A DNA stretch of 64,000 nt from Podospora anserina (GCA_017654855.1 CM030332.1:6262001-6326000), one strand, 5' to 3'; counted from the stretch's first letter, positions 47,022-53,477 are shown. Notes: a model not told the origin generated them from the letters alone. Translations and numbers: made by a program.

Positions 47022-48725
47022 GTGCTTTTCTGGCTGTCTTTTGGTAAATAGTGGTTGTTAATATGGAGGGGTTTCTCTTTGCAGGGGGTCACATTTGTAA
47101 GATAGGTGGCTAATGGCCGTGATTAGGAAGAGTCTTTTGTGTTTTTGATGAAATAATGGGCGAGTGATTGTTTGTTAACACACCTGGAATTGGGCATTTA
47201 ATGGGAATGCTATGTGGTTGCGAAACCTCGACATTGGGCAAGTGTGACAATCCGTCTTTGAGGATATGTTGGCTAGTGAGTTGATCGTCTGAGACATTGA
47301 TGCAGGTACCGTCATCTCGCCACTCGGGTGTTGTACCCGGACTGGTGACACATATCAGATCTCAAAAATACAGTGGCAACTAAAGCATCATTGACAGGCT
47401 TGGGCTTACCAGGCTACGAAAAAGGGTTGGCTAGTGTTAGGCTTGGTTCTCACGGTTCTGTCCTTGTTGTGGACTTTCTGGATCACTGTTGCAGTTTTGG
47501 TGACAACCTGGCCCATCTGCGGTCTCGCAGTTACTACAGTTTTTGCTGTTGGGCCTAGGGTGGTCCTTATCCATATTGCCGTCGTCCTGGCGATGGCCAG
47601 CCCTGCCCCTGAACAGGGCACCCGCTTCTCCGGTTGTCCTGCCGGTCCTGCAGCCAGGACCGGTGTTGATATTGCTACTGCCACCCTTGCTGCCGTCGCC
47701 GCGGCAACTCGCCGTTCCTGCGTTACGCAACCCAATTCTAGCTCCGTAGTCTCCATCACATCTAGTCAACCCGGAACTTCTAGTCAACCCGGCATTTCTA
47801 GTCAACCCCAACACCTGTAGTTAACCTTGCACTTGTAATTGTATGACCCTAGCTATTCGGAGTCTTCTAAAGAGAACAACACAACAGAACATCTACAGTT
47901 ATTATACATATCGACCGCCTTGGACTGCAGACTCGCTTGCCATGTCTTCTAATAAAACCAGACGGAACTAGAAGTAAAGTAGAGTTACTCACTGCTGCTT
48001 TCCTTGAAGCTCGGGGCATATCTCATATCAAACGCTACTAGCTTATGATATGGTTGAAGGAAGTTGAACACACATCCTCTTGGAACCATGGAACTAAGAT
48101 ACAAGGTCTTTCCGTTAAGTCTTGGTTAATTCTGTCCTTGTTAGAGTACTTAACTATGAAGTCTTTAAATCGGATCCACGCCCTCTCTCAACATCCCTGA
48201 TCTAAGGTCGACGAGAAGTTAGAGCAAATAAGGCCCTTGTTAGTATTCATTTACACAGCTCTAGCTCCGCTCTACAGATTCTTCCCGATTCATTAGCATT
48301 ATAGTTATTCTATTAACTAGCATCGTGTATTTACTTTCCATCAGCTCATCAATAAATGTCTTTATATTCTACAGACAAGAATAAAGCTCAGCAGTGCTCA
48401 CAAGTGTGAAAGGTACCAACTTGATAGTGTTTGCTAATGCAAAAAGAACTGAAAGCAGCGTTCACACATAATGTCTTCGTGAGAATAAGATAGGGGATTC
48501 TTTGAGGAATATTGTATGTTGAGAGGGCTGTTGTCCTTGGGGGCTCATAGCTCATAGAAAACAACCATGATTTCCCCTTTAATTTGATGACTTACTGCTA
48601 CACACCTTGCGACATGAATCCATCCAACTGACCTGCAATATAGTCCGGGAGCATGGACACATGAATGTCTTTGTCGTTTCTGACAAAAGTGTTTATCAGT
48701 ATTTGCACATACCTAAGTTAAACCT

Positions 48726-49165
48726 CAACAGCGCTTACAAACAAATATCTTTATCGTTTAAAATCAAAAGAAATAAAACTCAGCAGCACTCACACACAAA
48801 TATCTTTATCGTTTATAAACGAAAAAATAAAATTTAGCAGTGCTCACAAGTTCAAAATGCATAATCCAGCAGTGCTTACACATAAATGAATGTCTTAAAT
48901 CGTTTAAAAGAAAAAAACAAAATACTACTCACCAGCACTCACACACAAACATCTTCTCCGTCTACAAACAACAAAACAAAACTTAGCAGCGCTCACAAGT
49001 GTAAAGTTTAGAATCCAGCAGCGTTACATATGATGTCTCGATCGTTTAAAAACGAAGAATAGCGCTCACAAGTGCAAAACGCATATTTAGGCAGCGTTTA
49101 CAAATGATGTCTTAGTCGTTCAAAAACAAAAAACAAAAACTCAGCAGCGTTCACAAACGATCTCT
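48726..49165. repeat. Degenerate AT-rich tandem repeat array, core YAGCAGYRCTYACA, with higher-order structure
   Basis: Cores at about 48726, 48781, 48835, 48867, 48930, 48984, 49016, 49058, 49089 and 49142; outlying copies near 48389 and 48453. Confidence 0.85.
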
Positions 49166-50062
49166 CATGTTAAAGCTTGGATGACGATTGTTCAAACATA
49201 ATTACCTTTAAAAAATCTATGCAAATGCCATGTAGACTTCATTCAAAAGACTTCAAATGCAGCATTTTTGACCAGTTTGGGGGGGGAGGGGAGGTAATGC
49301 AGGGCTTTGCAGGGCTGTGTGAGACCCCTTTTGGCCCCCATGTCAAGCAGGCAAAACTCCATTTTGGTCGACTCTTACAGCCTCAGTTGTGAACATGGCG
49401 TGTTTGAAGCTTGGTATTGAGGTTTTTTGGCGTTGAACTGAGGTTGAAGGGCTGTATTTCTGACTGTGTTTAATGTTTTAATAGCCTCAAACAGGTCTAT
49501 ATATGGGATTTGAGGCTCGGGCAATGCATCATCCCACACAAGAAGGCCTCAAAAGCCATTAAAATGTGGATCTCTATGCATTAATATGCAACATTATGTT
49601 GTTGAAGGACATCCAACTACATCCTTCTAACCTCCCCTGAAGCGGAGAAAACAGATTTCTGTGATGTTTTCAGACCTCGGTTGTGGAAACCCTTGGATTT
49701 GATGCCTACAATCGACAATAACGCCCACAGCCAAGGATCACAGGTCTCAAACGTAGGACTGGACGTCCAAATAGCTACATCAAGTCACAAAAAGACCTCA
49801 AAAAGTCATAGATAAATGTCCGCATGTATTTGAATGTCTACAACGCTATGATTTCCCTCCCCCCCAAAACTCCTCGCCATTTACCCCCTATAAAAACAAA
49901 AGCAACATGTCCACGAATATTGCGCCCAAGTCGACGTGCAAATTACCCCCTAAGATCTCCACGATATCCTCCGAGGCCTCAGAATAAAACTATCATGCAT
50001 GGGAAAAACGAAAATTGCACGAGAAAGCCCAAAAGAAAAGGCGACAACAACTTGGAAACGGC

Positions 50063-53000
50063 TCAGAAGCCGTCGTACTCGAAAGCAGCGGCGTATTCGG
50101 GGATGGTGCCCTTCATAAGGGCGTCATCTCTGTCCGCCTGAAGCTCCATCTTCTCCGGGTCGATGAAACGGGCGGTCAGAGCGAACCGTCGCTTTCCCTC
50201 GGGGGTGACGGCGTGCTGTAAGGCTGAGTGTTAGAGATAGGTACACAAGTTGCGGTCAGGGAAGGAAGAGCGCACCTCATACAGCTTCTGGATGGTGCAC
50301 CCAGCCATCACCATCATATCACCGTGCTTCATCTCCACCTCCAGAATATCCTTGTGGTTTTTCTTCCCACCGGTTTTGGTGAAACCATTGGTTTCGAAAC
50401 CCTTGTTTCGCTTGGGGCGAAACCTCATCGTGCACGGCGACCCAAGTGATAGAGCGGCGACAACAGGGCCAAGCTCCTTTTCACCATCATCATGATACTG
50501 TGGAATGATAGGTTAGTACACTACAGTAACGTCGCCAGCAACGGTAACATACATTAATCTTATCATCCTCCATATAGCCCAGGGCGAGTAGCTCATTGAA
50601 GCTTTGGCTATGAGCGTCAAGGTTGGTGATGGTTTCATCACCAATCTCATGATCAGCCGGGAAGTTTGCCGTGGCAGAAGACACAGCAACATTCTTGGCC
50701 CAGTCAAGACGCTTGAGAGCCTTGAGAATGGCAGCGGGGGCCTCGGCGAAACCCTTGGACTGTACCGAGACTCCAAACTTGTAGCGGGCACCCTTGGAAA
50801 TCATTGTGAGTTTGATACCCAACAATCTGACATAAGTGTTGGACTTACAAAGTTTTGCTGGAAGTGGCGGGTCAAACCTTCAAGCTTGTCTGGAAGAGGG
50901 TCAGTATGGTCTCCCTACTGGAAACGACATGGAATGAGTATGACTTACGACCAGCGACGGCAGCGGGGTTCCTCTTCAGACCAATATCCTCCACCTCCAA
51001 AGACCTGAATAGCTCATCTGGGCCACCAGGCCTGGCGTTGATGACATCATTCGACTGGAAAATTGTGAAGGAGCCAATAATACGTTCCTGGGCGTCGGTC
51101 AGGAAGAACTGACGAACGTTATAGCCTCCAAGGCCCATAACAGATGATCGAATGGCATATTTCTCAAGCCAGATGGTGGTGAGGGCATCGTTGGCTTGAT
51201 GGCGTGATCTTCTGGACGCCATCTGCTTTGTGAAGGCCTCAACCTCAGCCTCAAGCTCTGCCTGAGGGAATGGAGTCATGGGGGCTGCCTTCTTGAACCC
51301 GCACCCTGGGATCTCGCACTGCAGCCAGTTCCAGTACCGACGTCTGCAGGCATGATGGCACTGGGGGCAGACAAACCCTCCGCGAAGGCCCAACTCTGTG
51401 CCGTGGTGCTGAGAATTGACGGCGGGCAACTCGGGCATGAGCGAGGGAATGGTTCCCGTGAAAGGCTGGCGCTCGTCAAGAAAGGCTTGGCTGTAGGCCA
51501 GAGCATCGAGGTCGACCAGTTGGTCGGGCAACATCCGATAGTACATGTTGCAGCCGTATTGGAGGCAGAACCATCCAATGGTAAAAATTTGTTTACTCTC
51601 CTGGTGACAGGAAGAGCAAACTCTCATGGGACAAGTGACCGGAGTCACGATCTCCTCCTGCCCAGCAGGAATCCACCAAGACGGCGTGAAGGGGTTGGCT
51701 TTTTCGAACCGAATACGCCAGACTGAAAAGATCCTCTGAGTCTCAGGGTTCCTCAGAATTTCTTTCCACATGTATGTGATGTGGAACCAGTCGAGAACAG
51801 CGTAAGGGGCAGGCGGCTGGCAAGGGTAAAGCGGATGATTCTCACCTTCAAAGTGGGTTAGCATGCTCTAGTTCATGGAAAACCTGAATTTCACTCACCC
51901 GCAATGATAGCAATCAAAGTACGTTGCTCGTAAGCGTTCTTGATGGATCGAACGTTGGTGGCGTTGTCATCGGCGTCGCGACCACGAACCATTACGCTTC
52001 CTTCCCTCACTCGGCCACCCCCACTGTACCTAAGTTAGCAACCATAGTAAACACTACAAGGGCCTACGGACCCGAAGAAGGTGGACGAGGATGAGAGTAC
52101 TTACACAGCCGAAATGACAACGCTTTGGTGGAAGACATCGCCCTTTTCGACCTCCAAGTCAATCAGAAATCCCTTGGCAAGCAGACCGATGTTGTAGAGA
52201 CTGCTCTTGTAGGACTTGTAGTAAGGGAGGGCCTCGCATAACCCCCCCCGGAACCTCGAGTGAATTGGAGGCGGGCCACGAGGGGCAGGCCTGGCAACAG
52301 GGACACGAGGGGCGAGCTTGACAACAGGGGCAGTCTCTTCATCCTTGTCGGCGACAGGCGCGATAGCCAGGTTAATCTTGATGTTGGCGGCCTGGGGGAT
52401 GATGTCGTCAATGTCTGGGTACTGAGCCACGTCCAAGATAGGACTGTGAGGGTCAATCGCGGGTAGGCCGACCACGGGAGAGCCCACCGCAGGACGACTG
52501 GCGACAAATGGGTAGACACTCGAGTCCCAAATTGGGATCTGAGAAGCCAGAGCACCACTGTTGTGGTTGTAAAAAGGCAGCGGCTGTCCGGCCTGATGGG
52601 CGGGGTCGGGATGGACGAAAGGGTCGACCATCGGAGGGTTAACCAATGGAGAGTTGGCCGCGAGAAGGTTGACCACGGGCGGGATAGCGACAAAGGGGTA
52701 GGCGGCGGGATGATAGCTTTGGGTGTGAGGGTTGTACCAGTTCTGGTCAAACACCGGTTCATTCATAAAAAATTGCTGGTGGGCTAAGAAGGGGTCGACG
52801 GCACCATGCTGAGTTACGGCTTGATGGTTAACGATGGCCCTCAGGTTGAACATGATCTTTTCAACGTAATATTCCAAGGGCACATTGGCCAGCTGCATAT
52901 CCATTGCGTCTGCTTGCATGTGGAACGGAATGACGGACTTGGCCTCGTGGTTTTCGGGTGCAGCTGGGTAGAGAGGCACGTTTTCGCGCTCCAGGTTGGG

Positions 53001-53477
53001 GTCAATGTTATTCTCGACATTGGCGCCACACTCGGCATTGACGACAAAGTCAGCGTTCATGTCATTCTTGACGACAATCTCATGCTCGGCGTCAACTTCG
53101 TGTTCGGCATCAATTCCGTGCTCGGCATCGATGTCAGTCTCAGCCTCGTCATTGACATCCTTGGAGTGAATCTCGGAGAATTCCCGAGTCCGCAAGCGCT
53201 TGCTGATAGATTTGGTAACCGCACGCGAATCCTCAAACTCGGGAGTGTCTTCCCGGGACCGCTTGTTGGCCCGCGGGAAGTCGTCAAAGGCACCAAACCC
53301 CTGAATGATGCTCGTCAACTTCTCTGTGGCTCGCAAGGCAGCCTGGCGCTTGGGCCTGCCAGAGACAGGCATGACAGGAGACGAGGGAGCTGAGCTCAGG
53401 GGCGAGGAGACGCCGGAAAAGACACCGTCAGCCTCAGGGGAGCTTGTGCCGGTCACCTCGGTGGTCATGTCAGACAT
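50063..53477 (-). CDS. Fungal AlkB-family 2OG-Fe(II) dioxygenase with a putative SRA/SAD-like domain and two Cys clusters; exons 53477-52105, 52023-51899, 51845-50949, 50889-50849, 50792-50553, 50497-50276, 50215-50063
   Basis: Six canonical GT-AG introns give one continuous frame. The C-terminus reads FNELLALGYMEDDKINYHDDGEKELGPVVAALSLGSPCTMRFR...HGDMMVM...KLYEHAVTPEGKRRFALTARFI (HxD, distal H, RxxxxxR). Cys clusters CSSC...CLQYGC and CPQC...CEIPGC. Confidence 0.85.

Follow-up and report, generated by a model that had tools for sequence, protein, structure and literature searches.

Fusions of a divergent SAD(SRA) domain with an AlkB dioxygenase have been predicted in several fungi by Iyer, Zhang and Aravind in 2016, who placed the AlkB part near the AlkBH3 clade and conjectured N6-methyladenine (m6A) as the modification concerned (PMC4738411). 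We analyzed a stretch of 64,000 nucleotides from Podospora anserina (GCA_017654855.1 CM030332.1:6262001-6326000, hereafter the window), in which the gene Pa_1_17260 (PODANS_1_17260; XP_001907175, CDP24105) occupies positions 53477-50063 on the minus strand. The gene is a real, spliced fungal gene, and its product consists of a disordered N-terminus, an SRA fold, two four-cysteine (Cys4) clusters, and an ALKBH3-like dioxygenase in which the iron and 2-oxoglutarate residues are intact. This architecture is not new. It belongs to a known predicted family that is widespread in filamentous fungi, and it is of the same kind as the fusion in the 2016 paper, with a divergent SRA and an AlkB 2-oxoglutarate- and Fe(II)-dependent (2OG-Fe) dioxygenase in one polypeptide. 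A preliminary description of the window had described such fusions as predicted computationally yet barely characterized, and the 2016 paper bears this out. No functional study of the SAD(SRA)-AlkB family was found in our literature searches, whose coverage mostly leaves out subscription journals. The accessible part of PMC4738411 mentions neither Cys4 clusters, pocket residues, nor catalytically dead paralogues.

Several other fungal proteins may be compared with this family. CpALKBH, Dmt1, and CcTet likewise belong to the 2OG-Fe dioxygenases and have methylated bases as substrates (PMC11708048, PMC13297926), and a 2026 review of fungal methylation gives Dmt1 and CcTet as characterized demethylases, with no mention of the SRA-AlkB family in its accessible text (PMC13297926). 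Dmt1 is a relative of NMAD-1, CcTet is a TET enzyme, and CpALKBH has 350 residues; none of the three is described with an SRA domain in the accessible parts of these sources, and CpALKBH was set apart by its description as not matching the architecture. FOXG_21009 was also set apart by description, as its architecture in the accessible text differs (modelled over residues 4-208, nearest to a Pseudomonas dioxygenase; PMC12310939). Fusarium graminearum ALKBH2 (933 residues), reported to be induced during ascospore formation (PMC10826363), was not accepted as an orthologue, because its Pfam E-value of 1e-29 is far stronger than those in the SRA-AlkB family and because the P. anserina genome has another AlkB protein of ~1000 residues. 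The annotations of Pa_1_17260 itself go no further than AlkB-like or unknown. The only paper we found that names it (bioRxiv 10.1101/2024.12.09.627484) calls it "AlkB-like", with no mention of SRA in the portion available.

The gene contains seven exons, which join into 1016 codons and one stop with no internal stop. The six introns are of the GT..AG type, with lengths of 81, 53, 59, 56, 55, and 60 nt for introns 1-6, and five of the six contain a CTRAY branch motif. Exon 1 (52105-53477, residues 1-458; all features of the gene are on the minus strand and in window coordinates) encodes the disordered N-terminus and the first third of the SRA, exon 2 (51899-52023, residues 458-500) a further part of the SRA, and exon 3 (50949-51845, residues 500-799) the end of the SRA, both Cys clusters, and the start of the AlkB domain. 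They are followed by exon 4 (50849-50889, 41 nt), exon 5 (50553-50792), exon 6 (50276-50497), which opens with Tyr-His-Asp-Asp-Gly-Glu, and exon 7 (50063-50215), which contains the distal His, two Arg, and the stop codon. When six exon pieces were searched against Pfam, the only match was PF13532, on exon 6.

Exons 1, 2, and 7 are defined by the open frame and the match to the database protein P0001, which comes from a Logan contig of 3463 nt. P0001 is identical to the spliced product from Met4 onward at 1012 of 1013 residues, without gaps and across all six junctions. The other Logan members of the P0001 cluster are exon-sized pieces of 135-460 residues on long contigs, and P0001 therefore most likely comes from a spliced contig. 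Contigs of two of the four public runs skip introns exactly; those of run X2 do so at introns 3, 4, and 5 and those of run X3 at intron 4, which gives the joint 50889/50949 at exon 3 and joints at both ends of exons 4 and 5. In the four runs there is no contig joint for introns 1, 2, and 6, and one contig of run X5 retains intron 6 as unspliced read-through. We note that the assignment of these runs to RNA is a guess by the tool, that no run recorded as RNA was among those listed as containing the gene, and that the coverage is patchy and uninformative on expression level. The preliminary description had proposed that seven exons splice into a protein of ~1000 residues, which agrees with these results, and all the motifs it quoted, including YHDD, EHAV, RFALTAR, and WRIRFEK, are found in the spliced product.

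The public P. anserina record aligns to the spliced product with 98% identity over 1020 columns, with gaps at introns 3 and 6, which the XP_001907175 model splices otherwise than here (50890-50948 and 50216-50275). The contig joints favor intron 3 as modelled here, and the XP_001907175 form of intron 6 would remove 12 conserved residues just ahead of the distal His. An annotated orthologue of 1016 residues aligns to the spliced product without gaps (97%), and the P0001 cluster comprises PODANS_1_17260 and the orthologues of four other Podospora species.

An AlphaFold2 model of P0001 was built from 94 sequences. Residues 390-1013 have ten-residue means of the predicted local distance difference test (pLDDT) of 87-98, and 340 of the 1013 residues are under 50. 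The N-terminus (residues 1-~383, 52329-53477) is of low complexity, as had been noted from the sequence alone, and predicted to be disordered over ~380 residues; its length is highly variable among relatives, and its short basic clusters may be nuclear localization signals. Within exon 1, positions 53139-53086 encode a six-residue motif of the D-A-E-H type that is imperfectly repeated three to four times. The predicted template modelling score (pTM) of the whole chain is 0.69 in spite of the low-pLDDT residues, which suggests that the SRA, zinc, and AlkB parts may be rigidly placed together, and it is this score from which a docking of the SRA/zinc half on the AlkB half is proposed.

The divergent SRA (SAD/YDG) domain covers residues 402-558 (399-555 in P0001), encoded by 51670-52274. 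The preliminary description had suspected an SRA fold in the segment encoded by ~52300-51650, and both the fold and its placement hold. A profile of 143 family proteins, with no structure model involved, matches the SRA chains of SUVH5 (E 4.7e-7) and SUVH6 (E 0.0024), and SUVH4 was matched at E 5.7e-4 in a further sequence alignment; a first profile of 26 close relatives failed to reach any SRA structure. When modelled alone, the middle module with the SRA and the Cys clusters (302 residues) is predicted to fold as a single unit (pLDDT 95.7, pTM 0.92). Structural comparisons place this module close to the SRA structures of TagI (Z 14.3), KYP (Z 13.6), SUVH5 (Z 13.6, root-mean-square deviation (rmsd) 1.8 Å, 130 aligned residues), and UHRF1 (Z 13.4). 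In a wide fold search with the module, all 13 matches at Z ≥ 5 are SRA or SRA-like DNA binders, and the next match has Z 4.7. No YTH, EVE, or ASCH chain is among the 50 matches listed in this search, which SRA chains head, and families outside this listing are not excluded by the tool. In a separate search, every one of the 37 matches listed is an SRA-containing chain. The language-model neighbors of the middle segment include SAD/SRA at 0.89, which we take as a lead only.

Two observations speak against the SRA assignment. The Pfam PF02182 (SAD_SRA) cut-off was reached by none of 12 family proteins (best P0101, E 2.8e-5, 24.4 bits versus a cut-off of 30.7; P0001 has no PF02182 match), and the family profile does not align significantly (E 0.069) to the canonical SRA protein of this genome. 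As no single protein passes the Pfam cut-off, the SRA was overlooked in annotations; one family member is titled 'YDG domain-containing' in UniRef. Compared with SUVH5, KYP/SUVH4, UHRF1, and TagI, the domain has in common the fold, the base-reading Asp, and a Gly-rich loop, but the identity is only 13-17%, and its partner is a dioxygenase rather than the SET, RING, or HNH domain of those proteins.

The base-binding pocket also differs. In SUVH5, the flipped base is sandwiched by Tyr416 and Tyr428 and read at its Watson-Crick edge by Asp418 (PMC4740795). HMMER alignments, after conversion of the chain numbering, place Tyr416, Tyr428, and Asp418 on Lys442, Ser453, and Asp444 of P0001. The Asp (Asp447 of the spliced product, 52137-52139) is kept in 16 of 20 relatives. 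One of 20 diverse relatives has an aromatic residue at the first Tyr position and one of 19 aligned relatives at the second, and none has both (counted by eye); if either column is shifted by one, it holds no Phe, Tyr, or Trp in any of the 20. The mapping is a sequence alignment through a loop, and nearby aromatics might rebuild the pocket. The altered pocket agrees with the remark, in the part of PMC4738411 available, that this version of the SRA has distinct features. The absence of both tyrosines weakens the idea that the domain is a classical reader of 5-methylcytosine (5mC), which the preliminary description had put forward for a lineage that has repeat-induced point mutation (RIP) as well as DNA methylation. 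RIP is indeed present in P. anserina, but DNA methylation is described as none or very little (PMC6709928), although the genome contains three C5-methyltransferase loci. The methylcytosine-reader proposal is thus not supported as stated. We also observed a canonical SAD_SRA gene in this genome (G000:C6:118207-118614, 92.9 bits), in a fungus described as without DNA methylation.

The two Cys4 clusters proposed earlier are both conserved in the family. Cluster 1 (Cys576, 579, 593, and 598; 51550-51618) and cluster 2 (Cys659, 662, 676, and 681; 51301-51369) have the same CxxC..WxCxNxxC pattern, and in 21 diverse rows six of the eight cysteines never vary, the other two being conserved at 90% or more. 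Both clusters are presumed zinc sites. The Cys region gave no named family in a language-model search (best 0.76), and the listings of fold searches that included it were filled by SRA chains. A likeness to ribosomal eL43 was dropped, as the matches (E 0.58-1.6) are not significant.

The C-terminal part (residues ~719-986, 50156-51189) is an AlkB-family 2OG-Fe(II) dioxygenase with a nucleotide-recognition lid. In direct structure comparison, P0001 716-983 matches ALKBH3 with Z 17.9 (rmsd 2.8, 195 aligned), and ALKBH2 (17.2) and FTO (17.1) are within 1 Z. Among 48,161 representative chains, ALKBH3 is at Z 17.8 (rmsd 3.2, 202 aligned), ALKBH2 at 16.0, and FTO at 15.2, and lower matches include OsALKBH1 (13.9), AlkB (13.5), ALKBH5 (12.2), NgTET1 (11.0), TET2 (9.7), and CcTet (9.1). 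The last three are well below ALKBH3, and TET enzymes are not the nearest structural neighbors. ALKBH3 chains are the only sequence-level AlkB matches at E < 0.01, and the Pfam PF13532 score is 68.6 bits versus a cut-off of 31.2. The iron ligands His894 and Asp896 of the HxD motif lie together with Glu898 at 50480-50494; the third iron ligand His967 and the 2-oxoglutarate-site residues Arg976 and Arg982 lie at 50168-50215. HxD, the distal His, and both Arg (R-x5-R) are conserved at 90% or more in 143 proteins, and the HxD..H triad is found in 20 of 20 diverse family rows. The HxD..H..R..R set proposed in the preliminary description is therefore intact, and judged by sequence the enzyme appears catalytically competent. 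Position HxD+2 is occupied by Glu without exception in alignments of 143, 129, and 94 proteins, and this Glu corresponds to ALKBH3 Glu195. The alignments were drawn from 171 proteins, of which short or partial ones were dropped first and long ones afterwards to limit size. At the equivalent position, Asp135 of AlkB is required for repair of 1-methyladenine (1mA; PMC3985658), and Glu175 of ALKBH2 bonds the amino group of 3-methylcytosine (3mC) and 1mA (PMC12295762). Human ALKBH3 and ALKBH2 thus have the fold, the HxD..H..R..R set, and this Glu in common with the protein, but they are only ~20% identical to it and lack the SRA and the Cys clusters.

The family was surveyed with the profile of 26 close relatives against 1.84 billion representatives at 50% identity, which found 623 representatives at E ≤ 1e-30; relaxing the threshold to 1e-10 and 1e-3 raised the number to 1350 and 2166, and these two weaker bands take in plain AlkB proteins. 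When 30 proteins were looked up by cluster, 19 could be named, from Sordariales, Xylariales, Colletotrichum, Venturia, Aulographum, Baudoinia, Aspergillus, Penicillium, Elaphomyces, Xylona, Agyrium, and Mycena, that is, Sordariomycetes, Dothideomycetes, Eurotiomycetes, and Lecanoromycetes with one Mycena. A profile search for named model-organism orthologues gave 10 proteins, and no Neurospora or Aspergillus nidulans orthologue was identified among them.

We tentatively favor, at somewhat less than an even chance, that the protein is a DNA-anchored N-demethylase of the 3mC/1mA type specialized for the sexual cycle. The SRA and zinc module would pack on the catalytic domain, clamp nucleic acid, most likely duplex DNA, and help to present a flipped base to the AlkB domain. 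The AlkB domain would then oxidize an N-linked methyl group on a base whose exocyclic amino group is retained, as in 3-methylcytosine or 1-methyladenine, and the oxidized methyl would be released as formaldehyde. The SRA with its altered pocket would serve as an aid to DNA binding and flipping rather than as a classical 5mC reader. In favor of this proposal are the ranking of ALKBH3, ALKBH2, and FTO ahead of ALKBH5 and the TET enzymes among structural neighbors, the restriction of sequence-level AlkB matches to ALKBH3 chains, the unvarying Glu at HxD+2, the DNA-binding nature of the SRA matches, and the prediction of the middle module as a single unit. The main use would be in sexual development, where the enzyme could plausibly clear off-target 3mC made by C5-methyltransferases such as RID. 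A review reports that C5-methyltransferases yield 3mC as an off-target by-product and that ALKB2 co-evolves with them (PMC9246332). Expression of Pa_1_17260 increases between Tm24 and T12, when PaRid peaks, and a second time over T24-T54, an interval that spans karyogamy and meiosis (bioRxiv 10.1101/2024.12.09.627484).

Several points weigh against this demethylase proposal. The same preprint shows flat expression at the time of RIP, and the co-expression with PaRid comes from one study and is a correlation only. A canonical ALKBH2/3 gene, L009, is present elsewhere in the genome (E 5e-24 to ALKBH3), so plain repair is already covered. In the N-x-Y strand before HxD the Tyr is kept, but the 2-oxoglutarate-site Asn of ALKBH3 is replaced by Leu, and the protein is therefore not the ALKBH2/3 orthologue proper, which is L009. 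FTO, an m6A enzyme, and ALKBH5 likewise have an acidic residue near the active site (PMC3985658), and FTO ties with ALKBH2/3 in fold score in the direct structure comparison.

It is rather unlikely that the protein instead demethylates N6-methyladenine, as 6mA in DNA or m6A in RNA, with the altered SRA pocket reading methyladenine. In m6A readers of the YTH type, the methyl group is caged by aromatic residues, whereas aromatics have been lost from this SRA pocket. That the pocket is unlike those of 5mC readers, that FTO is a near-tied structural neighbor, and that the genome has one MT-A70 locus would all suit this proposal, which follows the conjecture printed by Iyer, Zhang and Aravind (PMC4738411), but the unvarying Glu at HxD+2 follows the pattern of ALKBH2/3 and AlkB, and the 2026 review describes the 6mA signals of Dikarya as low and contested (PMC13297926).

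An unlikely alternative is that the substrate is structured RNA (m1A or m3C, the 1-methyladenine and 3-methylcytosine of tRNA or mRNA) or a chromatin protein, and that the SRA and zinc module is a docking surface. Against it, the solved SRA structures matched above Z 5 all belong to DNA-binding proteins. In its favor, ALKBH3 is active on RNA and some AlkB homologues are active on proteins. In addition, ALKBH1 activity on histones is mentioned in PMC10826363, and the SRA belongs to the PUA-like group, which has RNA binders (PMC4738411).

Quite unlikely is the proposal of the preliminary description, in which the SRA binds 5mC, perhaps transient and made by RID, and the AlkB domain oxidizes 5mC or a neighboring base with a role in RIP or methylation resetting. 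The true SRA fold with its base-reading Asp in 16 of 20 relatives, the three C5-methyltransferase loci, the overlap of expression with PaRid, and the in-vitro oxidation of 5mC by AlkB, ALKBH2, and ALKBH3 cited in the preprint (bioRxiv 10.1101/2024.12.09.627484) are consistent with this role. Against it stand the loss of both stacking tyrosines, even with a register shift of one, RIP without DNA methylation in P. anserina (PMC6709928), a separate canonical SAD_SRA gene, and the flat expression at RIP time. Finally, an artefactual SRA likeness or an inactive relic, which the missed PF02182 cut-off (24.4 versus 30.7 bits) and the E of 0.069 to the canonical SRA protein might suggest, is extremely improbable and already largely refuted by the SUVH5 matches in profile and structure (E 4.7e-7; Z 13.6, rmsd 1.8 Å), the conservation of the catalytic residues (at least 90% across 143 proteins), and the spliced contigs.

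The genome contains further related loci. A divergent paralogue on contig C2 (L017:3404-5400; G000:C2, about 395400-397400, plus strand) has an SRA-like part, both Cys clusters, and an AlkB fold, the whole architecture being recovered by profile with probabilities of 98.5 and 99.9, and by our reading of the DNA it has an intron where Pa_1_17260 has intron 2. HxD, the distal His, and the first Arg are all missing from it, and the same loss is found in 3 of 3 relatives, all Cladorrhinum (42-48% identity), which suggests that the paralogue is a conserved pseudo-enzyme and no decaying copy. The dead and intact proteins of Cladorrhinum sp. PSN332 lie on equal-sized contigs and have close locus numbers, a hint of local duplication.

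Decayed gene pieces were found at L015 (C1:2005738-2006003, 89% DNA identity), L016 (C1:2217408-2217841, 78-85%), and C7:2363640-2363801 (70%), all in G000. The L015 piece has two stops. In the L016 piece, part of exon 3 is joined to the exon 5-6 region, intron 5 is kept, and 19 nt over the HxD codons are missing. These pieces are DNA-level captures and not retrocopies, and their decay is not plainly due to RIP, as the changes include transversions. The second AlkB protein of ~1000 residues (L008, G000:C5:264464-265084 and upstream, minus strand) has a different N-terminus, which we take to be isochorismatase-like. Just downstream of Pa_1_17260, positions 48000-50000 of the window are AT-rich (GC 0.40 versus ~0.52 around) with no long frames. 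From their translations, the neighboring genes look like unrelated housekeeping genes, and there appears to be no cluster.

Pa_1_17260 brings an old prediction within direct reach of experiment, as it sits in a genetic model with routine knockouts and RIP assays. In P. anserina, RID is essential for fertility though 5mC is not seen, and this gene is up-regulated in the sexual cycle. One further reading, which we regard as quite unlikely, is that during the sexual cycle the protein works alongside the RID pathway, its re-shaped SRA recognizing a base mark undescribed in fungi, for example a RID product or the 3mC by-product, and its AlkB domain oxidizing that mark. If this is true, the protein would supply an enzymatic step so far missing from RIP and the development of the dikaryon, or safeguard them, in a fungus that lacks stable 5mC, and the paralogue that has lost its iron ligands would assist as a regulator or as a reader only.

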